Source: a virus
Lineage: Duplodnaviria; Caudoviricetes
Length of the DNA: 64,000 nt
Direction: 5' to 3' (one strand)
IMG/VR virus record: IMGVR_UViG_3300031555_003442
Location: 64,001 to 128,000 of that record
Shown in pieces: positions 4,124-33,074 of the stretch (its first letter is position 1; every line of letters starts with the position of its first letter). The position numbers were made by a program, and so were the translations under genes. The notes beneath the pieces are model-generated. The model was not told where the DNA came from and made no database searches. It was given only the letters and a program-made list of their open reading frames with translations.

Positions 4124-7100
4124 TTACACATAAAGTGAAGTGGTCTGAGTGTTGCTAGAACCATTGGATTCAACAATAGTTCTCAATGTAATCCAGCGAG
4201 AGGTCTTGGTTGGCTTCAAGCGGAGGTCAACGTGCAACTCGTTCCTGTCGATTACGTCAGGCGTGTTGTTCGTGTCGTCGCAGATAGCCGTACCTGAGTA
4301 CAAACCAGCCGGGTTAGAGTTCATGATTGCATCGAGTTGAGCCTGCAGGTCCGACTGGATGTTCGTACGCAGGTTGGTGGTGTTCAACTGGAAGACCTTC
4401 CTATCGAGGTAGTGATAGAACATCTTGTGAATACCAGCCAAGAGCATAGCGACATGAATCTGGTCGAATGCTGAGCTTTCCTTCTGCATCGTGAAGTCGC
4501 CCCAGATGAACATTCCACGGCTGTTGAAACGAGTCGGGTTGACCCTGATTTCGGTCAGACGTGCGATGTTGGAATCCGTGTCTTCTGGATACTTGAAGGT
4601 TCTCGGATACTTTTCGGTTACGCCCCATTCCGTCGGGATGACAGCGTTGATTTCGCCAGCAGGCGGCAACCACCAGATACCGTTGGCAGCGTTTGCCGTG
4701 ATGATGGAGGCCAGCTGTACGGACTTCACCACTTCGACGTTCATGAGGGTGTAGTAGCTGTCGAAGAAGATGCCACGGCCATCGTAGATAGCGCCCCAAC
4801 GGCCCTTCACTCCGAAGCCCTGTGAACCAATCATCTTCCTGAGGGTAGTCTCGATGTTGGCTTCGCCTACGCCGTCAAGGATAGCAAAGCAGTCCTTACG
4901 GAGTTCGCAGACATTGAGGATTGCGGAAATGACCGTACCGTCGAGAACTTCACGGTCCTTCTTGAACAGGTTCGTGACACCAGTACCAGCACCGATGAGC
5001 ATAGACACGTCCGTGCCATCCTTGTCGAGGAACAGGTTCCAAGCGTTTGCAAGGGTAGCGGTGTCGCTGTTGTTGGCTGGCGTGTATTCCCAGATTGCGT
5101 CGTTGATGATGGCCGGGTCACGTTCATCGTATGCGAGCATCGTGGAAACAGAGTCGAGACGTCCGTTTTCAACACTCTGGGACATATCGTAAGAGTTGTT
5201 CGTGAGGAAGTTGTCGAGGATGCCGCTGTCGTTGATGAGGAGCCTTGCACCGCTGTTCGTGAGAACAGAGTCGGCCACGTCACCAATGTAGAGGTTACCG
5301 TCATCATGCACGTAAGGCACGATGGTTCCTTCCATCTCGTAGCTCTTGCCGTTGAAGTGGTAGGTGATGTAGAGGTACATCCTTGCGATGGCCTCGCCTT
5401 CCGTAGAAAGCACATACACCTGCTTTGCAACGCCATTGAAGTTCACATCTTCGTACTTGACGGATGCGAGACCCATTGCGTTGAACGAAGCACCGATTTC
5501 GTCGCTCACGAGGAGCTTGTCGGTACGCTGCATCACGCCACCGTTGTAGGTAGAGTATGCGAAGTCGAGCAGGTCCTTGTACGGGTCGCTTTCCTCGTGT
5601 TCACCAGGAACGATGAAGTTTTCTTCCTGTACGTTCGCAGGAACCGTCAGGTCGTATGCACCGAGCATATTGAATGTCAAGCCATCCTTGCCAGCCACCC
5701 AGATGTTTGCATTGGATGCAGTGAGGTCGACCAGTTTCCATTCGCTGTTCGCACCGAACTTGTTAGCCTTACCCGTATACTCGTCGAATTCGATATCTCC
5801 GTGGTGGCTCAAAATCACGATGTCCTTGAACGTGTTGATGTTCTGGACAACGTAGATATCGTCCTTGCCGAAGATTTCCGTCTGGTCGTCAGCTGCCTTG
5901 TTCGTCTTCTGAGGAACGAATGCGACGAGGTCGCCAATTCCGTACTGAGTTGCTGTTCCGAACGGTACCTGCACGCCGATTGTGGTCGGCGTGTTGTACT
6001 TGTACCTGTCGGCAGGGTCGGTAATCTGGGTGACGTTGTTGCCAAGGTAAGTGTTGATTGCGAACCCTTCCTTGTTGAAAGCAGCAAGGATGTTATTCGT
6101 CGTTGCCGTGAGGTTGATGAGAGTCGTTCCGAGTTCACCGCTAACGTCGGTACCATCCTTGTCGGTGAGAGTTACTGCGCCAGAACCCGTCACAGCAGTG
6201 ACGTAGTATTCGAGCTTTTTTGCATCATTTTTGAGCTGGATAATGTCGTCTGCGGATACAGTGCCGACATCGACCATGGCACGAGTCTGCAACATATCAG
6301 GCTTTCCTGAAAGGGTTTCAGGGAACACCATCGTAACGACGTATTCCAGAACGGGGTAAGTAGCCGTAAAGCTGATTTCGTCGTCCACTTCAGGGGCTGT
6401 AGCTCCCTCGGGATAGACAAATGTCCAAGAACTGCCGCTCTTGCTGATGGTACCCGAGTCGCAGGTATATGTTGCGTCGTCGGGAACATCGGTTTCAACG
6501 AAGGTTACCGTACCAGTTGCCGTGCGGGTGTTTTTATCCACGGCAGTAACCTTGAATGTACCAGCACTCGTCTTAGGAGTTTCACTTTCGACGGCTTTCG
6601 GGCCAGACACGTTAACACCAAGGTATTCTTCATTCTTGGTTCCGAAGGTCGCAACAACGGAGTCTTCAGCATTGATTCTGTCCATAAACTCGATAGCATC
6701 ATCTTCCTCTTCGAAGGTTGCTGTGAGTTTCTTCGGTGCGGAAGATGTCCATGTAACATTGGTGAGTTCAACCGTGTTCAACACGTCAGGACGGTTGGAG
6801 TTGACGTTCAGCGTGACAATCTTTGCAGATGCGTCGCAGCTTTCCTTTCCAACGGACGTGATTTCGTAAGAGTCGAACTTTGTTGCACCAACAGCGTCGG
6901 CATCCAGCGTGACTGTCACTTCTCCATCGACCGTGACCGTGTCGACCGTACCCGTGACACTCTTCGTGTCATTGTAGTAGAACTTGACGGTGTCGCCCGC
7001 TTCAAGAACAGCGTCTTGGGGAGTGAACGTGAACGTCCTCAGACCTGCGATACCAGTGATTTCTTCATCTGTCGGGAGACCGATGATACGGGTAATCTTG

Positions 7101-8188
7101 ACGTTGGCATCAGGTTCACGCAACAGGATTGCGGAACCCATCTTAATCTTGTCGAAGTCAACGATGTTGCTCGTCTTGACATAGTTCATTTCGCCGTACT
7201 TCTTGACAGCACGGTTTGCAACAGCCGTCTTCACTTCGAGGTAGTCAACACCAGTCGTAGCGTCGTCGTTGTTGCAGAAGAACGATGCGGTCTTGCTTGC
7301 CATGGACGGGACATTGTTCATCTCGGTTTCGTACTCGGCGACAACCTGAGTGTCCAAAATCTTGTTGACCGTCGCATACACGCCCGTCTCGTTCTGAACG
7401 AAGTTAGAAGCGGGGAAGTAGATTACGTCGCCAACATTGAAGGCAGGAACAGAGTCGCAAACGAGGGTTACGAGCCTCTTGTTTTCCTTGCGAACCGTAG
7501 CGGTGTACCTATCGGCAGCACGCCTTGCAGCGGTCGGGTCGCTGTTGACGAGAGCGAAAAGCACGATGTTGGTATCGGAACGCACGTCAGACGGCTTTCC
7601 TTCTTCGTTGAACTCTTCACCAGCGGTCAACTGGAAGTCCACGTTGGAGTTCTCGGCGATGGTCTCCTGGATGGTGTTAATCTTGCGTTTACCACCGAAA
7701 CCAGAGAAACCGTCTGCGATATAGCGGGTAGCGGCGAAGTGACGGATATCGAAGGACGTATGAATCACGTCGGTATCGTTTTCATCGCTGGTACGGGACC
7801 TATCGTAGTAGTCGCTCTTGGCAGCACTGCGGTCGAAAGACACGACAAATGCGTCAGACTTCAAGTCGGACTTGCGAACGTCGGTCTTTTCCACCTGTTC
7901 GCCGTAGGGACGAACGAAGTGTACGTGGCCGCCGTTGTTAAGCACGGCACGGGTAGCGTACATACCCATGTTCCACTTGGCCTGGTTGAACCCGAGGCCG
8001 AGGATGGAATCCTGATTCGCCGTATTGGTGATTTTCAGGATTTTGTTAAATTCGCCCTTAGGGGAGTAGCCAACAACGCCGCCGATTAGGGACGGGTTGT
8101 CAATGAAAGAATAACCTGAACGGTCTTCAATCTTGATGGCCACGCCTGGACTTCCTTTTCTAGCCATAATACCCTCATATTTGGTCAT
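4124..8188 (-). CDS. contractile tail sheath protein (gp18-like), enlarged
   Basis: SPGVAIKIED start; C-terminal WWLPPAG, VNP, IWGDFT, SAFDQIHV, CDDTNNTPDVIDRNELHVDLRLKP motifs. Confidence 0.92.
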   Translation of the reverse strand: MTKYEGIMARKGSPGVAIKIEDRSGYSFIDNPSLIGGVVGYSPKGEFNKILKITNTANQDSILGLGFNQAKWNMGMYATRAVLNNGGHVHFVRPYGEQVEKTDVRKSDLKSDAFVVSFDRSAAKSDYYDRSRTSDENDTDVIHTSFDIRHFAATRYIADGFSGFGGKRKINTIQETIAENSNVDFQLTAGEEFNEEGKPSDVRSDTNIVLFALVNSDPTAARRAADRYTATVRKENKRLVTLVCDSVPAFNVGDVIYFPASNFVQNETGVYATVNKILDTQVVAEYETEMNNVPSMASKTASFFCNNDDATTGVDYLEVKTAVANRAVKKYGEMNYVKTSNIVDFDKIKMGSAILLREPDANVKITRIIGLPTDEEITGIAGLRTFTFTPQDAVLEAGDTVKFYYNDTKSVTGTVDTVTVDGEVTVTLDADAVGATKFDSYEITSVGKESCDASAKIVTLNVNSNRPDVLNTVELTNVTWTSSAPKKLTATFEEEDDAIEFMDRINAEDSVVATFGTKNEEYLGVNVSGPKAVESETPKTSAGTFKVTAVDKNTRTATGTVTFVETDVPDDATYTCDSGTISKSGSSWTFVYPEGATAPEVDDEISFTATYPVLEYVVTMVFPETLSGKPDMLQTRAMVDVGTVSADDIIQLKNDAKKLEYYVTAVTGSGAVTLTDKDGTDVSGELGTTLINLTATTNNILAAFNKEGFAINTYLGNNVTQITDPADRYKYNTPTTIGVQVPFGTATQYGIGDLVAFVPQKTNKAADDQTEIFGKDDIYVVQNINTFKDIVILSHHGDIEFDEYTGKANKFGANSEWKLVDLTASNANIWVAGKDGLTFNMLGAYDLTVPANVQEENFIVPGEHEESDPYKDLLDFAYSTYNGGVMQRTDKLLVSDEIGASFNAMGLASVKYEDVNFNGVAKQVYVLSTEGEAIARMYLYITYHFNGKSYEMEGTIVPYVHDDGNLYIGDVADSVLTNSGARLLINDSGILDNFLTNNSYDMSQSVENGRLDSVSTMLAYDERDPAIINDAIWEYTPANNSDTATLANAWNLFLDKDGTDVSMLIGAGTGVTNLFKKDREVLDGTVISAILNVCELRKDCFAILDGVGEANIETTLRKMIGSQGFGVKGRWGAIYDGRGIFFDSYYTLMNVEVVKSVQLASIITANAANGIWWLPPAGEINAVIPTEWGVTEKYPRTFKYPEDTDSNIARLTEIRVNPTRFNSRGMFIWGDFTMQKESSAFDQIHVAMLLAGIHKMFYHYLDRKVFQLNTTNLRTNIQSDLQAQLDAIMNSNPAGLYSGTAICDDTNNTPDVIDRNELHVDLRLKPTKTSRWITLRTIVESNGSSNTQTTSLYV

Positions 8189-10366: not shown

Positions 10367-13129
10367 ATGATTAAGTACGTAATTAAAAGAGATGGCCGAC
10401 GTGCCAAATTTAATCCAACTAAAATTTCTGACGCAATCACGAGTGCCTTCCTCGACAAGGAGATGCAGGTCGGGAAGAAGGAACTAGAAAATCTTACCGA
10501 CAAGGTTTGTGACAAGATTGAAGCCTCTACGGACAAGCCGACGGTTAGCGTCGAGACTATCCAGGACATCGTAGAAGATGTACTCATGTCCAAGGACAAG
10601 TATAAGGAAGTTGCCAAGGCGTACATCCTCTACCGTGCCGAAAGAACCCGCAAGCGTGAATCGAAGAGCAAGATTATCAGCACTATTCAGGAAATCAAGG
10701 CTGCTGACCTCAAAAGTTCCAACATCCTGCGTGACAACGCCAATGAATCTGGAACAACCCCCGCAGGTGCATACGGAAAAATCGCATCTGAAACCAACAA
10801 GACTTACAACATTCTCAATGTCGTGGATAGGAACATCGCCGAGCTCCATACCAAGGGCTACATGCACATCCATGACCTGAACCTTTACGACCTTACTTTC
10901 AACTGTCTTTTTGCCCCAATCGGCAAGCTTCTGGAAAGGGGTTTCGACTCTGGTACTGGCTTTATCCGTTCCCCCAAGTCAATCCAGTCTGCCGCATCTA
11001 TCACCGCCGTAATCCTGCAGCTTCAATCTAACCAGCAGTTCGGTGGCATCGCTTCTGCAAACCTCGATTTCGAACTCGCCCCCTATGTGGACATGTCCTT
11101 CAAGAAGAATCTTGCTTGGATTCTCGCTTCCGACAAGGTGCTGGCCGAAAGAAGTCTTGGTTTCGACTCCTTCGACGACATCGACAATGCCGACATCGAG
11201 AAGGCAATCAAGAAGGAAGCCCACGCTATCCGCAGCCAGATGGCAAAGGACGGCCTCAGCCTCGACATGCCGTTCAAGGATGTCGTCGCAAAGTACGACC
11301 GCAAGGCTGTCGTTCAGGCTTACATCAAGACCAAGGACGATACCTACCAGGCAATGGAAGGCCTCGTACACAATCTCAACTCTCTGCAGTCCCGTTCGGG
11401 CAATCAGGTTCCGTTCAGCTCCCTGAACTTCGGTCTCGATACTTCCCGTTGCGGACGCCTCGTTTCGAGCAACCTTATCGCCGCACAGATGGCTGGCCTC
11501 GGTGACGGACTCACTGCAATCTTCCCGATTCTTATCTTCAAGTACATGAAGGGTGTCACCTATCTCCCTGACGACCCGAACTACGATTTGAAGCAGGCTG
11601 GTATCGCATGTCTTGCACGTCGCTTCTACCCGAATGGCGTCGCCGTTGACAACGAGTTCAACGCCCCGTACATCCGCTACGAATACAATGACGATTTCAA
11701 GCTGACCGATGACACCCTCGTCAAGAAGATTGGTGGCGACCGTGTTGCCAAGTATGGTGAAGTCGCTTCCGAAAACGACATCTATCCTCGTTGGGAAGTC
11801 CGTGTCGAAGGCAAGTACTGGCAGATTTGCCATGGCCGTCTGCAACGCCTCATTCCTGAAAGCACCGTTTCCACGATGGGATGCCGTACAAGGGTTCTCG
11901 GCAACGTGAATGGCCCGCAGCAGACTGTTGGCCGTGGCAACCTTGCGTTCCATACCCTGAACCTCCCGAAGCTCGCTGTCGAAGCCCGTATCGAAGCTTC
12001 CAGCGAAGCTGACCGTATCAAGCTATTCAACGAAAAGCTCGACCGTATGCTTGTTCTCGCAAGGAAGTCCCTTGAAGACCGTTTCGAGGTCATCGCCAAG
12101 AAGACTTACGAGAACTACCCGTTCACCATGCAGCAGGGCCTCTACCTCACGTCAGATGACAAGGTTCACGATATCCACGATACCGTTGCCGAAGTCCTCC
12201 GTCAGGGAACTCTCTCCATCGGTTACATCGGCGTTTACGAAGCCGTTCTCGCTCTCACGGGCAAGACCTGGGGTAAGGACGACGAAGTGTTCGACCTCGG
12301 TTACGAAATGGTCAAGCGCATCCGTGACTTCTGTGACAAGACCCAGAAGGAAACCCACATGAACTGGTCCTGCTTCGCAACTCCTGCCGAAGCCGTCTGC
12401 GGAAGGTTCTGCAACATCGACATGCGTCAGTTCGTCAAGAACCCGTCTATCGAAGCTGACGCTTTCACTAAGGAAAGCGTTGATGCTGAAACCCTCGGCG
12501 AAGAAATCACCGTAAGGGATTATGCGACGAGAAACACCATTAAGGTCAAGTACGCCGACCTTCTCGAAAACAAGGCCAAGTTCATCAACAGCTACGAAGT
12601 CCTCGTCAACGACAAGTGGGGTCTAATCGACTCGATTACGGCACAGAAGCTCGGAGTCAAGTACTGGACCGAATTTGGCTACCGCATGTGGGGTAAGGGC
12701 TACCTGACCAACTCGCACATGCTCCCGTTCGCATTGAAGACCACTCTTGCAAACAAAATCAAGTGGGAAGCTCCGTTCCACAAGATTACCAACGCTGGCC
12801 ACATCTTCTATCACAAGATGGATGGCGACCTCAGCAAGAACCTCGAAGGCGTGGAAAAGGCCATGAACGCCATGTATGAAGGTGGCATGGGCTACTTCAC
12901 TGTGACGATGGATTCGGATACGTGCATCGCTCCGCAGCCTAATGGAAAACCGTGTGGATTCCACGGTGTAATCAATGGCCGTTGCCCGAAGTGCGGCAAT
13001 ATGTTGGAAAAGTACATCATCCGTGTAAGGAGAATCACGGGCTACCTGACTGGTTCTCCCGCAAAGTCGATTTTCGATGTATGGAATCCAGCCAAGAAGA
13101 ATGAACTGGACGACCGTGTGAACATCTAG
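10367..13129 (+). CDS. nrdD: anaerobic (class III) ribonucleoside-triphosphate reductase with ATP cone
   Basis: VIKRDG ATP cone, HIHDL, MGCRT, TPAE, YLTNSH, CxxC zinc site, glycyl-radical RRITGYL. Confidence 0.96.
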   Translation: MIKYVIKRDGRRAKFNPTKISDAITSAFLDKEMQVGKKELENLTDKVCDKIEASTDKPTVSVETIQDIVEDVLMSKDKYKEVAKAYILYRAERTRKRESKSKIISTIQEIKAADLKSSNILRDNANESGTTPAGAYGKIASETNKTYNILNVVDRNIAELHTKGYMHIHDLNLYDLTFNCLFAPIGKLLERGFDSGTGFIRSPKSIQSAASITAVILQLQSNQQFGGIASANLDFELAPYVDMSFKKNLAWILASDKVLAERSLGFDSFDDIDNADIEKAIKKEAHAIRSQMAKDGLSLDMPFKDVVAKYDRKAVVQAYIKTKDDTYQAMEGLVHNLNSLQSRSGNQVPFSSLNFGLDTSRCGRLVSSNLIAAQMAGLGDGLTAIFPILIFKYMKGVTYLPDDPNYDLKQAGIACLARRFYPNGVAVDNEFNAPYIRYEYNDDFKLTDDTLVKKIGGDRVAKYGEVASENDIYPRWEVRVEGKYWQICHGRLQRLIPESTVSTMGCRTRVLGNVNGPQQTVGRGNLAFHTLNLPKLAVEARIEASSEADRIKLFNEKLDRMLVLARKSLEDRFEVIAKKTYENYPFTMQQGLYLTSDDKVHDIHDTVAEVLRQGTLSIGYIGVYEAVLALTGKTWGKDDEVFDLGYEMVKRIRDFCDKTQKETHMNWSCFATPAEAVCGRFCNIDMRQFVKNPSIEADAFTKESVDAETLGEEITVRDYATRNTIKVKYADLLENKAKFINSYEVLVNDKWGLIDSITAQKLGVKYWTEFGYRMWGKGYLTNSHMLPFALKTTLANKIKWEAPFHKITNAGHIFYHKMDGDLSKNLEGVEKAMNAMYEGGMGYFTVTMDSDTCIAPQPNGKPCGFHGVINGRCPKCGNMLEKYIIRVRRITGYLTGSPAKSIFDVWNPAKKNELDDRVNI

Positions 13130-22806: not shown

Positions 22807-23121
22807 ATGAATACCGATAAGGGAACTATTATTGGCGAAGCGGGTACATACCGTCTGATAGACCTGTTTGACGACCTTGCTGGAAGGATGCATACCTACG
22901 GCCCCAATGCCGTAATCAGTTTCAATCGGTCTGGTTGGAATGGTATCGGACCTGGTTTACGCATTGAAGGAATTCAAGCCAGAAACGAAGGTCGCTATCG
23001 TGGACGCAAAGGGAACGATGCAATTCTTCAATACATAAATGGCTTGACAATTTCACCATTTGTAACTATATTATCCTTCGGACATCAACCGAAGGATTTT
23101 TTATGGCTGTTATCGCAGTAG
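22807..23121 (+). CDS. hypothetical protein
   Basis: GGAGG RBS; 3' end overlaps a promoter. Confidence 0.5.
   Translation: MNTDKGTIIGEAGTYRLIDLFDDLAGRMHTYGPNAVISFNRSGWNGIGPGLRIEGIQARNEGRYRGRKGNDAILQYINGLTISPFVTILSFGHQPKDFLWLLSQ
23044..23102 (+). promoter_or_regulatory. TTGACA-N17-TATATT promoter followed by an RBS-sequestering hairpin and T-run
   Basis: ATCCTTCGG-7nt-CCGAAGGAT then TTTTT then ATG. Confidence 0.75.
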
Positions 23122-23504
23122 ATTTTGACGGAACCCTTGCTCTCGGGGACAGTTTCCCGAACGTGAACAACTCCGTCCCGAACACGGTTCTCATCGACGC
23201 CCTCAAGACTTTACAGAACTTGGGGCACCAGATAATCCTCTGGACATGCCGAGAAAACTACGGCGGGAAGTACTACGAGGACGGGCCGTACCTCATAGAC
23301 GCAGTCCAGTTCTGCGAACGCTGCGACCTGCATTTTGACGCAGTAAACAAGAATATCGGCGAAAATGACGGTGAGGAAGGAACCCTTTATGGCCGAAAAA
23401 TAGCCGCAGACCTTTATATCGACGACAAGAGCGTCATCCTTGAACCGATAAACTGGGTAGGGTATGTAGAGAAACTTTTGAGAAGGTTTGAAACTACGTT
23501 ATAA
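23103..23504 (+). CDS. HAD-superfamily hydrolase
   Basis: IAVDFDGT, LWTCR, RKIAADLYIDDK. Confidence 0.85.
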   Translation: MAVIAVDFDGTLALGDSFPNVNNSVPNTVLIDALKTLQNLGHQIILWTCRENYGGKYYEDGPYLIDAVQFCERCDLHFDAVNKNIGENDGEEGTLYGRKIAADLYIDDKSVILEPINWVGYVEKLLRRFETTL

Positions 23505-23517
23505 CACGGGGGTGCTT

Positions 23518-24087
23518 ATGTACATGAGTGAAGACGCCGAGTTGAGGATAGCTGGCATCGAGCCAGAGTCGTTCGTTGACGGCCCAGGTATACGTTTCGC
23601 CGTGTTCACCCAGGGTTGCACCCACCATTGCCCCGAATGTCAAAATCCCGAGACCCACGCCTTTGGCAAGGGTCACGTCGAGACTGCAGAAAGTCTGCTG
23701 AAAATGATTGATTCTAACCCGTTGCTGACAGGCGTTACCCTCAGTGGTGGCGACCCGATGGAACAGGCGATTCAGCTCCTGCCGTTCGCCCACGGGGTAA
23801 AGATGAGGGGCTTGAACCTGATTGTGTACACTGGGTACTGCTACGAGATGCTCGTATCTAAGTTTGCCCATCCAGCGATGAAGGAGTTGCTGATGTACAC
23901 GGACATACTGGTCGACGGCCCGTACATGAAGGACCTGCGTGACCTGGAACTGTCGTTCAGGGGTTCGTCCAACCAGCGTCTGATAGATGTACAGCAGAGC
24001 CTTGTCGAAGGAAAGGTGGTTCTACACAAAATCCAGCAAGAAGAAATGAAATTGAAACAGGGGGAACTGGGTGGTAGTATCAGTTAG
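23518..24087 (+). CDS. nrdG: anaerobic RNR activase (radical SAM)
   Basis: DGPGIR, CxxxCxxC (CTHHCPEC), SGGDP, DGPY, FRGSSNQ. Confidence 0.95.
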   Translation: MYMSEDAELRIAGIEPESFVDGPGIRFAVFTQGCTHHCPECQNPETHAFGKGHVETAESLLKMIDSNPLLTGVTLSGGDPMEQAIQLLPFAHGVKMRGLNLIVYTGYCYEMLVSKFAHPAMKELLMYTDILVDGPYMKDLRDLELSFRGSSNQRLIDVQQSLVEGKVVLHKIQQEEMKLKQGELGGSIS

Positions 24088-24235
24088 CGGATTGCTGTTT
24101 TCCATCGTATTGGGAGTAATCGGTGCCATTATCGTACTTGTGGTTACCGCTGGCATGGGCTACTTATTCAAATTAGTTTGCAGATTTTTCCGTTGGATTG
24201 CTAATAATTTCAAAAAGTGGAAAAATAACCCTTGA
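24071..24235 (+). CDS. small single-pass membrane protein (54 aa)
   Basis: GTG start; hydrophobic helix plus basic tail, read by eye. Confidence 0.45.
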   Translation: MVVSVSGLLFSIVLGVIGAIIVLVVTAGMGYLFKLVCRFFRWIANNFKKWKNNP

Positions 24236-24289
24236 CAATCATGTTTTAATCTTCTATATTTTCTCCTGTGAAACCACAGGAGATTTTTT
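24232..24289 (+). promoter_or_regulatory. TTGACA-N17-TATATT promoter of the NAD operon plus RBS-sequestering hairpin
   Basis: TCTCCTGTG-AAAC-CACAGGAGA then TTTTTT then ATG. Confidence 0.8.
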
Positions 24290-24835
24290 ATGAACAATAA
24301 ACACCTTATCATCGTCGACATGCAGGTCGATTTCATCACGGGCGCCCTCGCCAATCCTAACACAGAATGGGCACAGGCTGTAATCAAGAACATCATCGAG
24401 CTAATCAAGAAATTTGATGGCAAGGTCTGGTTCACCCGTGACACTCATTCCAAGAACTATCTCGATACCCAGGAAGGCAAGAATCTCAAGATTCCGCACT
24501 GCATCAAGGGCACTCCTGGCTGGGAAATCATCCCTGAACTCCGCCAGTTCGTCACCGAGCAGAATGTAATCGACAAGAATACGTTCGGTTTCCCGTACTG
24601 GGCTGCCGTCCTCGGCGACCATGATACCTATGCTGGTATCGAAATCCCGCCGACCGAAGTCTACATCGCTGGTACTGTCACTAGCATCTGCGTGGACAGC
24701 AACGCAAACGGTATCAAGACGGCGTTCCCCGAAGCTATCGTCGGCGTGTACAAGGACTGCTGCCTCGACCTTGACAAGATGCATCACGATGCCGCATTGA
24801 TGGCAATGGCAGCAAAACAAATCAAGCTTCTCTAA
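24290..24835 (+). CDS. pncA: nicotinamidase / isochorismatase-family cysteine hydrolase
   Basis: IVDMQVDF, TRDTH, PHC..GT.G, K, ICV catalytic set; NAD-operon context. Confidence 0.85.
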   Translation: MNNKHLIIVDMQVDFITGALANPNTEWAQAVIKNIIELIKKFDGKVWFTRDTHSKNYLDTQEGKNLKIPHCIKGTPGWEIIPELRQFVTEQNVIDKNTFGFPYWAAVLGDHDTYAGIEIPPTEVYIAGTVTSICVDSNANGIKTAFPEAIVGVYKDCCLDLDKMHHDAALMAMAAKQIKLL

Positions 24836-24847
24836 AAAGGAGATATC

Positions 24848-25303
24848 ATGCTCTTAGACACACTAAACGACAAAATCAAAGAATTCATGAAAGCCCACGA
24901 CACGGTGGCATTGACCGCCCTCCGTACGCTCGTGTCCGACATCAAGAACGCATCCATCGCCGCACAGAAGCCTGTTGACGACGCCATGTGCATTTCCGTT
25001 ATCGACAAGGCCATCAAGCAGAAGAACGAAACCATCGAAGGTTATGCCAAGGCTGGCAAGACCGACCGAGTTGATGAAGAAAAGAAGACTCTCGAACTCT
25101 ACAAGCAGTACATGCCCGAGCAGATGTCCGAAGCCGATGTCGTCGCAGAAATCGAAAAGGCTATTGCCGAAACTGGCGCCTGCGAACAGAAGGACATGGG
25201 TAAGGTTATGAAGATTCTTTCCCCCATCATCAAGGGTCGTTTCGACGGAAAGGCAGCAAGCCAGCTTGTCGTAAAGGCATTGCTCGCAAAGGCAGGCAAA
25301 TGA
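24848..25303 (+). CDS. GatB/YqeY domain protein
   Basis: MKA, YMPEQMSE, KDMGKVM, GRFDG. Confidence 0.88.
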   Translation: MLLDTLNDKIKEFMKAHDTVALTALRTLVSDIKNASIAAQKPVDDAMCISVIDKAIKQKNETIEGYAKAGKTDRVDEEKKTLELYKQYMPEQMSEADVVAEIEKAIAETGACEQKDMGKVMKILSPIIKGRFDGKAASQLVVKALLAKAGK

Positions 25304-26361
25304 TGAAGAATTGGGTTTACATCGGCAGGTTCCAGCCGTTCCACAATGGACACCTCGACGTTCTCCACCAGATTATCGACAAGATGGATAAGGAACATGA
25401 CCGTATCATCCTCGTTCTCGGCTCCACGGGTTCTGGAAGCCCCAGAAACCCGATTGACTCGGCAAGCCGTTACGACATGATTCAGAACATCCTTGATAAC
25501 GACGAAGTTGTTAACAAGGCTGGTGTCCGCACTCACATCTTTATCGAAACCCTACGAGATTCCCCGTACAACTGGACGATGTTCGGTAAATGGCTTCAGG
25601 CTTCCCTGAGTTCCTATCCTGCCAACATGGAAAACAACATCCTCTGCGGAATGGAGTACATCAAGGATTACGCAAACCTTGTCGGTACACCGTTCTGGCA
25701 GGCAACGGAAAATGTCCATGTCCATGCGACAGACATCCGTCGGGCTTTTGCGGAAAACGATACCGAGTTCCTGAAAGCGAACCTTCCCGCAGGTATTTTT
25801 GCCAACGAGGAACTGTTTGCCAAAATCAAGGATGAAATTGTAAGTACCTACAATCTGCAGCAGAAGTATATCAAGGATTTGAACCCGAAGTATTCTTCTG
25901 TCTACAAGACCGTGGACAACATTGTTCTTTGCGCTGGTCACATCCTGTTCGTCGTCCGCAAGGATAACGGCAAGTACGCTCTCCCTGGCGGTTTCCAAGA
26001 CCCGACCGACCTTTCTGCACAGAAGGCAGCCGAGCGTGAACTGATGGAGGAAACTGGATTGGATTCGTCCGACTGGACACCCGCAGCATCGAAGAATTTC
26101 GACGCACCGTTCCGTGACCCCCGTTCTAGCAACTGTGTAAATGCGGAAACTACGGCGTTCCTGTACCGTATCAACCCGAAGTATGTGCTCGGAACTGACG
26201 GCGTTCAGTACCCGAGACTCCCAGAAGTAGTCGGTCAGGATGATGCGGCAAGTGCAACTTGGCTCAAATTGAGTGAGGTGTGCAGCTCTGCCGAAAATAT
26301 GTTCCACGCAGACCACAAGAAAATCATCTTAAACATGCTCGGACTTGAACCGAGATTCTAA
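25300..26361 (+). CDS. nadM: bifunctional NMN/NaMN adenylyltransferase - ADP-ribose pyrophosphatase (NadM-NUDIX)
   Basis: IGRFQPFHNGH; NUDIX box PGG...AAERELMEETGL; RDPR, DDA. Confidence 0.9.
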   Translation: MMKNWVYIGRFQPFHNGHLDVLHQIIDKMDKEHDRIILVLGSTGSGSPRNPIDSASRYDMIQNILDNDEVVNKAGVRTHIFIETLRDSPYNWTMFGKWLQASLSSYPANMENNILCGMEYIKDYANLVGTPFWQATENVHVHATDIRRAFAENDTEFLKANLPAGIFANEELFAKIKDEIVSTYNLQQKYIKDLNPKYSSVYKTVDNIVLCAGHILFVVRKDNGKYALPGGFQDPTDLSAQKAAERELMEETGLDSSDWTPAASKNFDAPFRDPRSSNCVNAETTAFLYRINPKYVLGTDGVQYPRLPEVVGQDDAASATWLKLSEVCSSAENMFHADHKKIILNMLGLEPRF

Positions 26362-26380
26362 CTCAAAGGAAGGTAATAAA

Positions 26381-27655
26381 ATGCTAGACCATTGGTGTAT
26401 AGAAAGTCTGCTTGAGACAGACCTCTACAAGTTCAATATGGACAACCTGTACTTCACCCAGTACAGCGACTATACCGCAAAGTGGGCCTACAAGTGCCGC
26501 AACCGCAAGGATGGCAGCGTCGTGCAGTTCACTAAGGAAGATGTGGCGGAAATCAACCGCCAGATTGACCACCTCTGCACACTCACGTTCAGCCGTGAAG
26601 AGCTTAACCTGCTCTTCTCCAAGGCTACGTGGCTCACCCCCTCGTTCATGCATTTCCTGAGCATGTTCCGTCTTGACCGTGACGAGATACGAGTGACTTA
26701 TGACGAAAGCACGCCGTCTCACATGACTATCGAAGCTGGTGGCGATTTGGACCCGCTGATGCGTAACACTTACTTCGAAATCTACGTTCTTGCCATCGTC
26801 AACGAAGTCTATTTCTACAACCACAACAAGAACCATGCCGAACTCGAAGCGGAAGCTATCAGTCGAATCGACCAGAAGATTGACATGCTTGCTCGTTGCG
26901 AATACTGTATCGGCCCGTTCTCCGAATTCGGTCTCCGCCGTCGTTTCTCCCGCAAGGTTCAGGACTACCTAGTCCGTGCATTTGCGAAGGCACAGAAGAG
27001 CGGTGTTCTCGGTAATTCCATATTCCTTGGCACATCGAATGTGTACCTGGCGTTGAAGTATGACGTGAAGCCTATCGGAACCATCGCCCATGAAGCGGTC
27101 GAAGCAATCGGCCAGGGCAACCCGATGTACAACCCAGCATATTCCAACCGTCTCATGATGGACGCATGGCAGAAACAGTACAAGGGATGCAACGGTATCT
27201 ACCTCACCGACTGCGTCCGTACCGACCTCTTCCTCATGGACCTCACCCGCAACGATGTCCGTGTCTGGGATGGTTTCCGTCATGACTCTGGAGACCCGTG
27301 TGAATGGGGCGAAAAGATGATTGACGCAATCCAGCGTCTAGGTGGAGACCCGATGGAGAAGACGTTGCTCTTCTCCGACTCCCTCGATTTCGAACGTGCG
27401 ACCGACCTTTATGTTCGTTTCAGAGAACGTGCCAAGGTCGGGTTCGGTATCGGAACGTTCCTCTCCAACGACTGTGGTCTGGAACCGCTCAACCAGGTCA
27501 TGAAGCTCATCGAATGCAATGGCCGTCCTGTCGCCAAGATTTCCGACACCGAAGGAAAGCTCATGTGCCGTGATGCCGAGTATGTCGAATGGCTGAAACG
27601 CACCCTCGACTGGCGTCTTACCCACGAAGTCAAAAAATCTAAGATAATCCCTTGA
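26381..27655 (+). CDS. pncB: nicotinate phosphoribosyltransferase
   Basis: SLLETDLYKFNM, EFGLRRRFS, GTSNV, GTIAHE, RHDSGDP, FSDSL, FGIGT, VAKISD. Confidence 0.93.
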   Translation: MLDHWCIESLLETDLYKFNMDNLYFTQYSDYTAKWAYKCRNRKDGSVVQFTKEDVAEINRQIDHLCTLTFSREELNLLFSKATWLTPSFMHFLSMFRLDRDEIRVTYDESTPSHMTIEAGGDLDPLMRNTYFEIYVLAIVNEVYFYNHNKNHAELEAEAISRIDQKIDMLARCEYCIGPFSEFGLRRRFSRKVQDYLVRAFAKAQKSGVLGNSIFLGTSNVYLALKYDVKPIGTIAHEAVEAIGQGNPMYNPAYSNRLMMDAWQKQYKGCNGIYLTDCVRTDLFLMDLTRNDVRVWDGFRHDSGDPCEWGEKMIDAIQRLGGDPMEKTLLFSDSLDFERATDLYVRFRERAKVGFGIGTFLSNDCGLEPLNQVMKLIECNGRPVAKISDTEGKLMCRDAEYVEWLKRTLDWRLTHEVKKSKIIP

Positions 27656-27708
27656 CAGGGATTGTTTAATTAGTTATATTAAGTGACGGAAACATCCGTC
27701 ACTTTTTT
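27652..27708 (+). promoter_or_regulatory. TTGACA-N17-TATATT promoter overlapping a terminator hairpin
   Basis: AAGTGACGGA-AACA-TCCGTCACTT plus T-run immediately after the -10 box. Confidence 0.75.
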
Positions 27709-27722
27709 ATTAGGAGTAAATC

Positions 27723-28331
27723 ATGATTAACCACGTTGTTGGCGACATGCTCGATTTCAGCATGGACACACCCGATATCATCATCCACCAGACCAACTGC
27801 GAGGGCAGGATGGGTGGCGGCGTAGCCAAGGTCATCAAGGAAAAGTTCCCCCAGGTGTATCTGGAATATCTTGAATTTATCGCACACAACCTGTTTGACA
27901 AGCGGGACACCATGGCTCTGCCGATAAAGTGCAGTCACCTGCTTGGAAAATTTTCTTACAGCGAGGTTCCTGTCGGTGACAAGAAGGTGATTTTTGCCAA
28001 CCTGTTTGCTCAGGATAGCTGTTCGGAAAGTACTGCGGCGTTTAGCGAAAAGCGCTTTACCAGCTACGATGCTATGCACGAGGGAATGTTCGATATCAGA
28101 AACATGCTTGTGTATTCGTATTATGTCCAGAAGTTGCATGCCAACCGTCCAGTCAAAATCTGGATGCCCGAAAAGATTGGCTGCGTCAAGGGTGGCGGAA
28201 AGTATGAAATCGTCAAGGCAATCGTCGAAAGCGTGTTCGACCATCCTAGCTTCCGCAACATGATTGACCTCACCCTGTTCACGTTGCCCGAAAAGCTGGC
28301 TCGCCCGAAGGGACCCGTCGATGCGATGTAA
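27723..28331 (+). CDS. macro domain (ADP-ribose-binding/hydrolase, DarG/TARG1-like) protein
   Basis: GDM, IHQTNC.G.MGGGVA, ANLFAQ, IGC..GGG. Confidence 0.85.
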   Translation: MINHVVGDMLDFSMDTPDIIIHQTNCEGRMGGGVAKVIKEKFPQVYLEYLEFIAHNLFDKRDTMALPIKCSHLLGKFSYSEVPVGDKKVIFANLFAQDSCSESTAAFSEKRFTSYDAMHEGMFDIRNMLVYSYYVQKLHANRPVKIWMPEKIGCVKGGGKYEIVKAIVESVFDHPSFRNMIDLTLFTLPEKLARPKGPVDAM

Positions 28332-28605
28332 GAATTGCCCGTACGAGGACTACGACTACCAGGAGAATTATCCCTGTTGTAGGCTCTTCGGCGATAACGA
28401 TGACTATATCTATGAAAACGCCAAGGGCGAACTTGGTTGCAGATACAACATGCGTGGTCTGCAGAAGTTCGTCAGGGCGCACGAAGAGGAAGAGAAGATT
28501 ATCGTGCAACAGATGGGCGATTTCGCCAAATGGTGCGAAGAGCATCCGAACCCTCCCTATGACGACCCTGAACCAGAGGTAAATGATGATACGACGAAAG
28601 AGTGA
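28321..28605 (+). CDS. Cys-rich hypothetical protein
   Basis: CxxC ORF in run. Confidence 0.6.
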   Translation: MRCKNCPYEDYDYQENYPCCRLFGDNDDYIYENAKGELGCRYNMRGLQKFVRAHEEEEKIIVQQMGDFAKWCEEHPNPPYDDPEPEVNDDTTKE

Positions 28606-28771
28606 CTTCAAGTGCCGCCACGACCTGCTTGACATCTGGGAGTGGATGGAAGGGGCGTTCATCAAGGAGTGTCTCGATAAGGGTATCGACCCAGACGATT
28701 TTGGTGAAATCGACGTGTCTTTCTCCGTCTCAGTAAAGCAAAAAAGAAAACCCGAGATTAAAAAGGACTAA
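28583..28771 (+). CDS. hypothetical protein
   Basis: GAGG RBS. Confidence 0.55.
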   Translation: MMIRRKSDFKCRHDLLDIWEWMEGAFIKECLDKGIDPDDFGEIDVSFSVSVKQKRKPEIKKD

Positions 28772-28773
28772 GT

Positions 28774-29064
28774 ATGCGCCCGTACAAGATTAGAGTGTTC
28801 CTTGACCATCACGGTGCAGTATCCGATTTCATAATGGCGGATACCGAGTTCGAGACGGTCGATGCTGCTCGATTGTACATCAAGAAGCAGTTTGATGATA
28901 CAATCACCAATCTCGAAAATACGAACACCTCCTATAACGTGTCCTGTATCTCCAACAAGGACAGCCTTGATATCCCACGGGGTTATCAACAGGATTATGA
29001 GTCCTTGTTCTACAAAAAGCTGTTTACTGATGATTTCACGATGATTATGGAAGTTATCCGATAG
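28774..29064 (+). CDS. hypothetical protein
   Basis: ORF in run. Confidence 0.6.
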   Translation: MRPYKIRVFLDHHGAVSDFIMADTEFETVDAARLYIKKQFDDTITNLENTNTSYNVSCISNKDSLDIPRGYQQDYESLFYKKLFTDDFTMIMEVIR

Positions 29065-29076
29065 AAGGCATTTATT

Positions 29077-29463
29077 ATGAGTTATAACTACCAAAAGAAC
29101 ATTGACAAGCAAATTCTAAAGCTTCGCTTTGTCCATTCCTACAAGGAATACTATTCATTGCAGTTCAAAACGCCTGGATGGTTTGCCCAGTGGATTACCG
29201 TAGAGGAATACTTACCTACGGTAAGCGCTTCGGATAAGCCAGGTGGAGTAACTTCGTATGGCAACTGGGAAAACCGTTGGTGGCGAATTGAATCCAACGA
29301 TTACGGGAAGAAACTGCTGGACGAACTGAGGGCCCAGTTGAAAACCGTCGGCGATATTTACCGTACCTATATCGAGCCTGAGGAAAAACGAATGGCAGCC
29401 GACTATAAAAGATACAAAGAGTACTGGAATAAAATAAATTCAGTTGACGCTATTATCAAATAG
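29077..29463 (+). CDS. hypothetical protein
   Basis: ORF in run. Confidence 0.65.
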   Translation: MSYNYQKNIDKQILKLRFVHSYKEYYSLQFKTPGWFAQWITVEEYLPTVSASDKPGGVTSYGNWENRWWRIESNDYGKKLLDELRAQLKTVGDIYRTYIEPEEKRMAADYKRYKEYWNKINSVDAIIK

Positions 29464-29466
29464 TGG

Positions 29467-29495
29467 TTGACAAATTTTTAAGATGTATCTATATT
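29467..29495 (+). promoter_or_regulatory. sigma70-type promoter TTGACA-N17-TATATT
   Basis: exact consensus upstream of nadE. Confidence 0.8.
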
Positions 29496-29528
29496 TTCTA
29501 ATGAAATTATCAAAAAAGGATTATCCGT

Positions 29529-30365
29529 ATGAATTATACTTACACCCCGTATTTCAAAGTCGAAGATGAATGCGACAAGCTGAAAGCGCACATGTTCGAA
29601 TGGTTCAGCTCCAAGGGCTTCAAGAAGGCTATCGTCGGAGTTTCTGGCGGAGCTGACTCCACCGTTTGTTGCAAACTGGCTTGTGACGTACTCGGCCCGT
29701 CCAATGTCTATGCGGTCAGCATGCCGAACGGAAAGCAGTCTGACATTGCCGATGCCCGCAAGGTTATCGAAATCTGCGGATGCAACGAATCGACGCTCAA
29801 CATCGGCGAAATGTTCACCGCCATGAACACCCAGTTTACCCAAGCGGGGTTCGAGCTTAATGACGCATACAGGAGCAATAGCCCTGCCCGTCTCCGTATG
29901 ACCATGCTTTTCGGTCTGGCTCCACTCGTAGGAGCTGTCGTCATCAACACCTGCAACCTTTCCGAAGACTGTGCTTGGGGTAACTTCTCCACGCTGTTCG
30001 GAGACAACGCAGGTTGTTACGCATGTTTGCAGGGCTTCACCAAGACCGAAGTCCGTATGATTGGCGAATACCTCGGCCTCCCGCATGACTTGGTTTGGAA
30101 AACTCCGAACGACGGTATGTGCGGAAAGTCTGATGAAGACCGTATTTCCGAACTGTCTGGTATCAAGAATTTCACTTACGAAGAATTTGACAAGTTCATC
30201 CGTGGCTGTCCGCACTCGTTCAGCAAGTGCGATGTTCAGCGTCTCATTCACGGTTACAAAATCGGCAAATTCAAGAACAAGATTGTCAACATTGACCATT
30301 ACACTCCTACTGCGTTGCCTAACGCATTTGAAACCATTTCTTTGACGGTAACTGGTAGACTATGA
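29529..30365 (+). CDS. nadE: NH3-dependent NAD+ synthetase
   Basis: GVSGGADS, ARLRM, NTCNLSE, TLFGD, KTEV, KTP.DG..GKSDE. Confidence 0.92.
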   Translation: MNYTYTPYFKVEDECDKLKAHMFEWFSSKGFKKAIVGVSGGADSTVCCKLACDVLGPSNVYAVSMPNGKQSDIADARKVIEICGCNESTLNIGEMFTAMNTQFTQAGFELNDAYRSNSPARLRMTMLFGLAPLVGAVVINTCNLSEDCAWGNFSTLFGDNAGCYACLQGFTKTEVRMIGEYLGLPHDLVWKTPNDGMCGKSDEDRISELSGIKNFTYEEFDKFIRGCPHSFSKCDVQRLIHGYKIGKFKNKIVNIDHYTPTALPNAFETISLTVTGRL

Positions 30366-30802
30366 GTGGAATCTACGTAGGAGAAATATCGCTCGACATC
30401 TTCAAGACGGTGTGTGAAAAGCATCGCCTTGAAGTCGAAAAGTCCGAGAACGATAAGATGGGGTTGTTCTGTGCCGTGCTCAATGTGACGGAAGACGTGT
30501 TCATGCTTATCACGTACTCTGACGAGGCCGATGGCCGCAAGTACGTGAGCCTGTTCGCATCTAACCGCAAGACGGGTTCTACGCAGCAGATAAGTCATGT
30601 CCCTGCGTACTACAACAACCTCATCACCGCAATCAGAACAGCTAACCGTTTTTATGACGACACCAAGGCAAGGGGACTTGCCGTAGTGCCTAGAACTTTA
30701 AAGAAGGAAACCGCCAATGAAGGTAATGGTAACGGGCCACAGGCCAGAGAGAATAACAGGCAGGGAACAGGAAATCAAGGAATGGCTGGCGAAGAAAGTT
30801 GA
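30362..30802 (+). CDS. hypothetical protein
   Basis: ATGA-coupled to nadE. Confidence 0.6.
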   Translation: MSGIYVGEISLDIFKTVCEKHRLEVEKSENDKMGLFCAVLNVTEDVFMLITYSDEADGRKYVSLFASNRKTGSTQQISHVPAYYNNLITAIRTANRFYDDTKARGLAVVPRTLKKETANEGNGNGPQARENNRQGTGNQGMAGEES

Positions 30803-31211
30803 TGAACTGAAGCCTAGTGACTGCATCTCTGGCATGGCACGGGGCGCCGACCAGATTTATGCGGAGGTCGCTTATGAAAAAGGTATTCCTCTTATTTGTG
30901 CTTGGCCTTACAAGCGTAAGCTTCATCCTGTTGAGCAGAAGTATCACGACTATGCGGAAGTGAACTATCTCGCCTTCCACAAGTATCAGCCTAGCTGCTA
31001 CTCAACCCGAGACAAGTGGATGGTGGATAACTGCGATGTCGTCCTTGCCGTATGGGATGGAAACCCCGTTGGCGGCACTTACGACACGATTGAGTACGCC
31101 AAGGAAAAGCGCAAGCCAATCTATCTCTTCCCGTGGACTGCGGAATCAATCACTGAGATTATCCCGTTGGACCCTCCCCAAGTGACACCTGACGGATTTA
31201 CCCTCTTCTAG
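30717..31211 (+). CDS. SLOG-superfamily (YspA/DUF1273-like) protein
   Basis: VTGHRP, SGMARGAD, RDKWMVD, AVWDG, GGT. Confidence 0.85.
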   Translation: MKVMVTGHRPERITGREQEIKEWLAKKVDELKPSDCISGMARGADQIYAEVAYEKGIPLICAWPYKRKLHPVEQKYHDYAEVNYLAFHKYQPSCYSTRDKWMVDNCDVVLAVWDGNPVGGTYDTIEYAKEKRKPIYLFPWTAESITEIIPLDPPQVTPDGFTLF

Positions 31212-32447: not shown

Positions 32448-33074
32448 ATGGCTGATTGGCTTAATAATATCAAAGCATGTGGTGACCCGCAACTTGAACT
32501 CCGTGCCGTGAAACTCTTCGAAGAGTTCAAACAGGTTGTTGTCAAGGCTGGTGTCGAAAATCCTGACGAATTTGCTGAAAACATGTTCGACCGAATCATG
32601 CACCTTTACAAGAGCACCGAAAGGGTGTATCACGTAGGCCCGCATGACAACGTAATCGACTCGTTCTTCGCAAAGTATCGGTTCCTTAGCAATTTCGAAC
32701 CATGTACGGTCGTGTACGACGGAATGACCTATTCTTGCTCAGAGGCTGCATATCAGGCTGCAAAGACGACAGATGTATCACTCCGTATCGCTTTCACTAC
32801 GATGAACGGCTCTAAGGCTAAATACGCTGGTCAGAAACTCACGTTGCGACCCGACTGGAACGACATCAAGGTGAATGTGATGTACGAAATCGTTAAGGAC
32901 AAGTTCAGCCGCAATCCAGAATTGAGAGTAAAGCTACTCAATACGGGTGACTTGCAGCTCATCGAGGGAAACTACTGGGGTGACACCTTCTGGGGAGTCT
33001 GCAACGGAAAGGGCGAAAACCACCTCGGAAAGATTCTGATGAGGGTCCGCAAGGAACTGTCCGAAACACCGTAA
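32448..33074 (+). CDS. NADAR (YbiA/DarG1-like) family protein with N-terminal extension
   Basis: FLSNF, SEAAYQAAK, RPDW, KF..NP.L, LIEGN.WGD.FWG, G.N.LG.ILM.VR. Confidence 0.92.
   Translation: MADWLNNIKACGDPQLELRAVKLFEEFKQVVVKAGVENPDEFAENMFDRIMHLYKSTERVYHVGPHDNVIDSFFAKYRFLSNFEPCTVVYDGMTYSCSEAAYQAAKTTDVSLRIAFTTMNGSKAKYAGQKLTLRPDWNDIKVNVMYEIVKDKFSRNPELRVKLLNTGDLQLIEGNYWGDTFWGVCNGKGENHLGKILMRVRKELSETP

Follow-up and report, generated by a model that had tools for sequence, protein, structure and literature searches.

Few outcomes of bacterial antiviral immunity are more common than depletion of nicotinamide adenine dinucleotide (NAD+). Three phage pathways, NARP1, NARP2 and NARP3, have been shown experimentally to restore NAD+ against defence systems, and the deamidated route is part of none of them. 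NARP1 consists of Adps and Namat, and NARP2 of a nicotinamide phosphoribosyltransferase (NamPT, or NadV) and an adenylyltransferase for nicotinamide mononucleotide (NMN); the paper on these two (bioRxiv 10.1101/2024.02.11.579819) does not mention pncA, pncB or nadE. NARP3 consists of PnuC and NadR (Sci Adv 2026, PMC13464706). From sequence alone, Li et al. (Microbiome 2024, PMC11662467) reported complete salvage or Preiss-Handler pathways in 174 of 668 gut jumbo phages, described a pncB-nadD-nadE cluster (Kuafu_71), and suggested a counter-defence role for such "NAD-jumbo phages". No experiment linking the deamidated route to defence evasion was found in the searched literature, where "NARP4" occurs only in an unrelated paper. 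In this study, we analysed a 64,000-nucleotide stretch of a tailed-phage record (IMG/VR IMGVR_UViG_3300031555_003442, positions 64,001 to 128,000; hereafter, the window). It encodes a predicted deamidating NAD+ salvage cluster, with a PncA-like nicotinamidase, the nicotinate phosphoribosyltransferase PncB, a NadM-Nudix fusion protein and the NAD synthetase NadE.

We consider it rather likely that this conserved phage cluster rebuilds NAD+ from nicotinamide and ADP-ribose, and that it was selected above all for NAD+ supply under host NADase defence. As an annotation, the cluster is well supported as a NadM-Nudix variant of the kind of phage NAD+ salvage cluster reported previously. Its new details are a triad of PncB, NadE and NadM without NadV or NadD, a conserved macro domain partner, a co-resident NARP3-like module, and the promoter layout. 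The first-pass annotation of the window had offered the pathway as a candidate third NAD-reconstitution system, a place that PnuC and NadR already hold as NARP3 (PMC13464706). It had also regarded the four-step route as uncharacterised as a phage anti-defence system; this stands for experiment in the searched literature, but clusters with a counter-defence hypothesis were published in 2024 (PMC11662467).

Enzymes encoded by the cluster

The plus strand of the window is densely packed with genes between 24.2 and 30.4 kb (Table 1). The genes that the first-pass annotation had named (for nicotinamidase, YqeY, NadM-Nudix, PncB and NadE) were all found in place on this strand, and the order pncA-yqeY-nadM-pncB-(variable)-macro-(variable)-nadE is common to all four relatives with the same cluster in IMG/VR (loci L002-L005). 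The macro domain gene, located between pncB and nadE, had been overlooked.

The first gene is predicted to encode a nicotinamidase. Its product matches Pfam Isochorismatase with 82.6 bits, and its best solved relatives are all nicotinamidases, headed by PncA of P. horikoshii (1im5, E 8.5e-10). When aligned to that enzyme, it shows the D10/K96/C134 triad and the metal ligands D51/H53/H70, all of which are invariant in 22 phage homologues; the D-H-H metal site is the feature that separates nicotinamidases from other isochorismatase-like hydrolases. The AlphaFold2 (AF2) model has a predicted local distance difference test score (pLDDT) of 94, and its top Foldseek matches are the nicotinamidases 1ilw, 5zn8, 3o93 and 3pl1, with same-fold amidohydrolases only slightly lower.

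PncB exceeds the curated cut-offs of NF003704 (406.5 against 379) and TIGR01514 (349.7 against 269.55), and matches Pfam NAPRTase_N with 82 bits. In the PDB it matches nicotinate phosphoribosyltransferases (NAPRTases) only; the NamPT-family model PRK09198 gave no match at E <= 0.001, and the PHROG NamPT family scored just 38.9 bits. Thus, the earlier assignment to the nicotinate-type phosphoribosyltransferases (PRTases) rather than to NamPT is borne out. The motifs TDLYKF, FGLRRRFS and RHDSGDP are present, as are the others that the first-pass annotation had quoted, HxGH among them. The GTIAHE segment of PncB aligns with GTMAHE of the P. aeruginosa enzyme (1yir), and we take the histidine of this GTxAHE motif to be the autophosphorylation site of the family. 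Translation likely starts at ATG 26381, preceded by the strong Shine-Dalgarno sequence AAGGAAGG, and not at TTG 26345. PncB is the sole NAPRTase-family gene (PF04095) in the records G000-G003, of which G000 is the record of the window; no NamPT (NadV) occurs in them.

The NadM-Nudix protein aligns over its full length with the bifunctional enzymes of Synechocystis (residues 5-345 to 2qjo) and Francisella (residues 6-346 to 2qjt), and contains the NadM motif GRFQPFHNGH. NadE scores 111.3 bits with TIGR00552 (cut-off 63.65), has an SGGADS PP-loop and lacks a glutaminase domain. Its nearest cellular homologues, with 55-59% identity, lie in contigs of bacterial metagenome-assembled genomes, one of them, from a gut, directly downstream of an NAPRTase-family gene. 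In species representatives, identities reach at most 45%, in rumen or gut Treponema, Ruminococcus, Lachnospiraceae and Bacteroidales. In the NadE tree, viral sequences fall at no fewer than six places among those of gut bacteria.

Table 1. Features of the window around the NAD+ cluster, with the basis of each assignment (positions are those of the window; aa, amino acids)
Feature	Position	Strand	Length (aa)	Basis or remark
Tail sheath homologue, very long	4124-8188	-	1354	Resemblance to known sheaths confined to the C-terminal part
Anaerobic ribonucleotide reductase NrdD and NrdG-like activase (Fer4_12/radical-SAM)	10367-13129 and 23488-24087			
Promoter P1, TTGACA-N17-TATATT, before pncA-yqeY-nadM-pncB	24232..24260	+		Also upstream of pncA in L002, L004 and L005
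GC-rich hairpin and T-run between the -10 box of P1 and the pncA start	24262..24283	+		Likely terminator of upstream transcripts
PncA-like nicotinamidase (predicted)	24290..24835	+	181	Isochorismatase fold, D-K-C triad, D-H-H metal site
YqeY/GatB-tail-like protein	24848..25303	+	151	Pfam YqeY, 134.5 bits; phrog_1460; 3' end overlaps the nadM start
NadM-type (HxGH) adenylyltransferase fused to a Nudix ADP-ribose pyrophosphatase-type domain	25300..26361	+	353	CTP_transf_like and NUDIX (Pfam); phrog_395
PncB, nicotinate phosphoribosyltransferase	26381..27655	+	424	Curated cut-offs, PDB matches, motifs
Promoter P2	27652..27680	+		pncB stop codon inside its -35 box; conserved in L002, L004 and L005
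Terminator-like hairpin (10 bp) and T-run after pncB	27681..27704	+		
Macro domain protein, Poa1p/BT1257/DarG-TARG1 class	27723..28331	+	202	Profile, AF2, Foldseek; phrog_335
Four small open reading frames (variable insert)	28264..29463	+	113, 62, 96, 128	In L002/L003, not in L004/L005
Promoter P3, before nadE	29467..29495	+		Also in L002
NadE, single-domain NH3-type NAD synthetase family	29529..30365	+	278	TIGR00552, SGGADS loop, PF02540 only
Weak SLOG-like protein	30717..31211	+	164	cpYpsA 23.3 bits, below cut-off; 82-89% identical in relatives
NADAR domain protein	32448..33074	+	208	Pfam NADAR, 90.7 bits; conserved in relatives

Viral origin and relatives

The record of the window is a 177,808-bp IMG/VR fragment rated 42% complete. 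Two relatives, G001 (422,150 bp) and G002 (419,423 bp), carry direct terminal repeats and received a completeness rating of 100%. The window itself carries a tail sheath gene and NrdD. That the region is instead host chromosome or a misbinned bacterial contig, which the first-pass annotation had named as an outcome that would overturn it, is hardly credible. The gene families are those of bacterial housekeeping, and some "phage" database records with pncB are in fact bacterial. However, the IMG/VR record is viral, the window also holds the tail sheath gene, the same cluster occurs in complete relatives of about 420 kb with terminal repeats, and phage-specific promoters are repeated through the record. 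On these grounds, phage origin is upheld.

Two GenBank entries for "Acinetobacter phage MD-2021a" (CAKLQH020000008.1 and CAKLQF020000012.1; L013) were considered as examples of phage pncB and rejected, as both are bacterial chromosome contigs in which ribH, nusB, serB and phoBR flank pncB.

No isolate sheath, T4-like and cyanophage ones included, exceeds 29% identity to that of the window, so that no cultured relative or host could be found. A megablast search with the region gave no match among 50,697 phage records. The NrdD and the NrdG-like activase are in keeping with a host that is a (strict) anaerobe, and the cluster belongs to a clade of tailed phages of about 420 kb, the hosts of which are probably anaerobes of the ruminant gut or other animal guts.

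Both complete relatives encode an NAD-dependent DNA ligase. Far from the cluster, G002 also carries adjacent genes for PnuC (132 bits) and a NadR-like protein (CTP_transf_like and AAA_28) at G002:C1:345205-347034 (L010:205-2034). The same pair is present in G001, near 65.5 kb, and is found neither in the window nor in the 178-kb fragment. Probably, then, the 420-kb clade has two NAD+ routes, the cluster and a pnuC-nadR pair of the NARP3 type. PF13793, the family of the Prs-like Adps, had no match in G000-G003. No gene for an ADP-ribosyltransferase (ART; PF03496) or SIR2 was found in G000-G002, although Alt-type ARTs might escape these models; this result lends no support to a source of nicotinamide encoded by the phage itself.

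Among L002, L004 and L005, the identities to the window are mosaic: 97% or 78% for nadM, 98, 88 and 82% for pncB, 95, 87 and 70% for nadE, and 84% or 51-55% for macro. Together with the variable insert of four open reading frames (ORFs), none of which matched Pfam, this pattern suggests frequent recombination among relatives inside the cluster. The best-conserved gene of the cluster is yqeY, wedged between pncA and nadM and 88-91% identical in the relatives. YqeY is not known to be linked to NAD metabolism; in L129, an unrelated locus, a weak homologue is found close to NAD genes. A further ORF (30362-30802) is coupled to the 3' end of nadE.

Distribution among viral loci

A scan of IMG/VR that used an alignment of NadE yielded 248 viral stretches, the best 80 of which were examined with 10-kb flanks by tblastn. 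In 74 of these 80 loci, a pncA homologue is found no more than 10 kb from nadE, which indicates that the deamidating route is common among viral loci. All three of pncA, pncB and nadE occur in 41 loci, and NadD is detectable in 21 of the 41, for example in an operon pncA-pncB-nadD-nadE. The NadD and PncB of sampled loci score above curated cut-offs. One such locus has flanks of viral appearance, in which many small ORFs on a single strand are found besides methylases and a phage-type RNA ligase with a kinase.

A second architecture, pncA-prs-NadV-family PRTase (PRK09198)-macro-(NADAR)-nadE, was found in 31 of the 80 loci (e.g., L117, L120-L123, L126-L129, L132 and L135). The macro gene is just upstream of nadE in 22 of these 31, and NADAR is beside nadE in 8. 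GenBank OQ749652 (L014:4861-9299), with prs and a NadV-family PRTase, is listed with this architecture, and the deposited genome of Phage Phass-1 contains pncA-prs-PRTase-HAD-nadE. A nicotinamidase and NadE beside a NamPT-family enzyme is an odd combination, which prompts one to ask what base the PRTase accepts. Overall, most of the IMG/VR contigs with NadE carry a cluster of pncA, a PRTase gene and nadE.

NadM-Nudix and YqeY were each found, among the 80 loci, only in the four close relatives. When the search started from NadM, the triad of PncB, NadE and NadM-Nudix was seen to recur, without NadD, in four divergent lineages (NadM 29-48% identical). Homologues of NadM with 45-48% identity lie in pncA-x-nadM-pncB-nadE clusters, and a pig-gut homologue (35%) is accompanied by nadE, pncB and pncA. 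A large family of 381-residue NadM proteins (29-32% identity) occurs in pncB-nadE-(...)-nadM clusters on contigs of up to 384 kb. NamPT, as in NARP2, was beside just one of the sampled NadM homologues. Iyer et al. (2022) stated that phage NadM is always paired with NadV; the recurrent triad without NadV contradicts this statement.

Promoters and transcription

The exact promoter sequence TTGACA-N17-TATATT occurs 8 times in the window, where 0.01 occurrences are expected by chance, and 14 times in the 178-kb record; four of these lie at 23.0-29.5 kb of the window. The first-pass annotation had placed perfect host-type promoters before the pncA unit and nadE. Their positions were confirmed, but they match 11 of the 12 consensus positions and are not perfect. 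The relatives have promoters at corresponding positions. From these sigma-70-like phage promoters, the cluster would be transcribed as three units, with an early timing suggested by analogy with T4-type phages.

At 23044-23097, 24232-24283 and 27652-27704, the same unit is repeated: a sigma-70-like promoter followed directly by a GC-rich hairpin with a T-run, and then by a start codon. Such units are reminiscent of the promoter-stem-loop cassettes of T4-type phages. The hairpin would end the upstream transcript, and the new transcript is predicted to start inside the 5' arm of the hairpin.

Macro domain protein and other neighbours

A profile of 13 macro homologues matched BT1257, the DarG macrodomains, yeast Poa1p and human TARG1 in the PDB (2fg1, 5m3i, 6lfu and 4j5r; E 1e-13 to 3e-9). 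The AF2 model of the macro protein (pLDDT 83) has Poa1p, DarG and TARG1 as its top Foldseek matches, and the solved Poa1p mutants H23A and S30A are among these matches. The gene is kept in all four relatives, and the 13 homologues share the motifs HQxNC, GxGVA and CxxGG without exception. The invariant His22 may match His23 of Poa1p. For the macro, SLOG-like and NADAR proteins, PADLOC gave weak DarG, ShosA and PDC-M42C matches only. By their context, these three neighbours, together with the NARP3-like pair and the NAD-dependent ligase of the relatives, point to a conflict over NAD and ADP-ribose.

Discussion

In the proposed pathway, PncA would convert nicotinamide to nicotinate and NH3, and PncB would combine nicotinate with phosphoribosyl pyrophosphate (PRPP) and ATP to form nicotinate mononucleotide (NaMN). 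NadM would adenylylate the mononucleotide and the NH3-type NadE would carry out the amidation, in an order that passes either through nicotinate adenine dinucleotide (NaAD) or through NMN, to give NAD+. The Nudix domain may split ADP-ribose to AMP and ribose-5-phosphate, from which host Prs would regenerate PRPP; the host enzyme is invoked because the phage has no Prs. The macro protein would probably release free ADP-ribose from an ADP-ribose derivative. The net product would be NAD+ made from nicotinamide and ADP-ribose, which are the products of any NAD+ cleavage. NAD+ may thereby be kept available while SIR2/TIR NADase effectors of the host deplete it, and the cluster would also feed the phage's own NAD-dependent DNA ligase. 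The first-pass annotation had already proposed the recycling of both cleavage products, and had speculated that the deamidated intermediates might form a protected reservoir. On paper, the route from nicotinamide through nicotinate, NaMN and either NaAD or NMN to NAD+, with ADP-ribose yielding AMP and ribose-5-phosphate, is coherent; the NadM step, which had been given as NaMN to NaAD, may instead be NMN to NAD+.

For the last two steps, NadM may act on NaMN and NadE on NaAD, or NadE may convert NaMN to NMN before NadM acts. We favour the former, conventional order with fair confidence, because a true NadD is present in four of the five genomes with a related NadE and because sister phage clusters pair a similar NadE with NadD. 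A Francisella-type order, in which the same genes encode an NMN synthetase (NadE, NaMN to NMN) and a NadM that converts NMN to NAD+, with no NaAD, is unlikely. It would agree with the presence of NadM and absence of NadD in the cluster, a combination that in Francisella tularensis accompanies an NMN-synthetase NadE (PMC3376133). The Francisella protein 3fiu is also the second-best solved match of the window's NadE (76.6 bits), and the NadE clade of the window is on a long branch. However, the top solved match, P. horikoshii 2e18 (82.3 bits), was deposited as an NAD synthetase. Archaea use NadM as well, yet the M. jannaschii NadE is an NAD synthetase and has no appreciable activity as an NMN synthetase; members of the NadM family are specialised for NMN in Francisella, but bifunctional in archaea and Acinetobacter (PMC3376133).

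Several points weigh against the reading of the cluster as an NAD+-rebuilding, counter-defence pathway. All of the enzyme activities are assigned by homology. The PncA-like protein does not reach the NCBIfam equivalog of the E. coli-type PncA (22 bits against a cut-off of 174). NadM-Nudix is a divergent family member that also falls below the NCBIfam equivalogs (best, NF003786, 126.7 bits against 397), and its NadM domain may refuse NaMN. In its Nudix box, RELMEETGL is intact, but relative to GX5EX7REUXEEXGU the first E is replaced by D and a single residue is inserted ahead of RE. The macro protein has no invariant lysine like the catalytic one of TARG1 and DarG among the 13 homologues, so that there is no support for a glycohydrolase mechanism of the DarG/TARG1 type; an activity like that of Poa1p, on some soluble derivative of ADP-ribose, is no less likely. 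Moreover, the deamidating route is dearer in ATP than NARP2, and plain metabolic support explains the same genes. In that case, the cluster would be a set of auxiliary metabolic genes that boosts NAD+ by nicotinamide recycling in a long infection of nutrient-poor anaerobes, whatever the host immunity. The NAD-dependent DNA ligase of the complete relatives, the NrdD and NrdG-like genes of a window rich in nucleotide metabolism, the emphasis of Li et al. on NAD-consuming phage enzymes (PMC11662467), and the descent of phage NadE and PncB from housekeeping families of gut bacteria are all in line with this. We nevertheless regard it as somewhat unlikely, as nicotinamidase, Nudix, macro and NADAR genes, all processing products of NAD cleavage, are closely linked, and the second module of the relatives belongs to the NARP3 type, for which action against Sir2-HerA has been demonstrated (PMC13464706). 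The booster and counter-defence roles are not mutually exclusive, and an anti-defence role of the cluster is plausible but unproven.

It is also conceivable, but quite improbable, that the genes form no single phage-autonomous pathway. NadM-Nudix would then serve the branch of nicotinamide riboside and NMN together with PnuC-NadR, and PncA, PncB and NadE would reinforce the NadD route of the host. The complete relatives do carry pnuC-nadR, and NadD is widespread in the groups to which the host likely belongs. However, nadM shares a transcription unit with pncA and pncB and is placed between them, the triad of PncB, NadE and NadM recurs without NadD in four divergent lineages, and NadR has its own adenylyltransferase domain.

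Returning to the counter-defence reading, its strongest form is that the NadM-Nudix deamidating route and its coupled macro protein represent a distinct and widespread fourth class of phage NAD+ reconstitution against SIR2/TIR NADase defence. Nicotinamide and ADP-ribose (or derivatives, through macro and Nudix) would be recycled, and the ammonia released by PncA would balance its use by NadE. This form is put forward tentatively, with slightly less than even confidence. Judging by the cluster and its many gut and rumen viral relatives, the four-enzyme route may be the one used instead by large phages that infect anaerobes, hosts in which salvage typically passes through nicotinate. If the route proves to work, it would add a further mechanistic class, explain phage NadM-Nudix without NadV, and provide the macro and NADAR genes, which accompany NAD genes, with a function open to test.

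Comparison with known systems

Like NARP2, including NadV-NatV of Vibrio phage KVP40, the cluster leads from nicotinamide to NAD+ with an adenylyltransferase of the NadM-Nudix type and would use host PRPP. It differs in lacking NamPT, in having two extra enzymes (PncA and NadE), and in its deamidated intermediates. With NARP1 it shares the rebuilding of NAD+ from both cleavage products; however, it contains no Prs-like Adps, and ADP-ribose is predicted to be split by Nudix rather than pyrophosphorylated. NARP3 starts from another substrate, imported nicotinamide riboside, and uses other enzymes.

The NAD-jumbo phages (PMC11662467) are similar in that PncB and NadE are clustered on a gut phage genome of more than 200 kb (419-422 kb in the relatives described here), with a predicted autonomous synthesis of NAD+; both cases are known from sequence alone. 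They use NadD, whereas the cluster of the window has NadM-Nudix and no NadD, and its nicotinamidase, YqeY and macro protein also belong to the conserved set. The bacterial pathway of PncA, PncB, NadD and NadE and its NadM variants (in Acinetobacter, and in the NMN-synthetase route of Francisella) have the same chemistry and the same enzyme families. In contrast to this bacterial deamidating salvage, the genes described here are encoded by a phage, placed behind phage promoters, and accompanied by genes for macro, NADAR and Nudix proteins.

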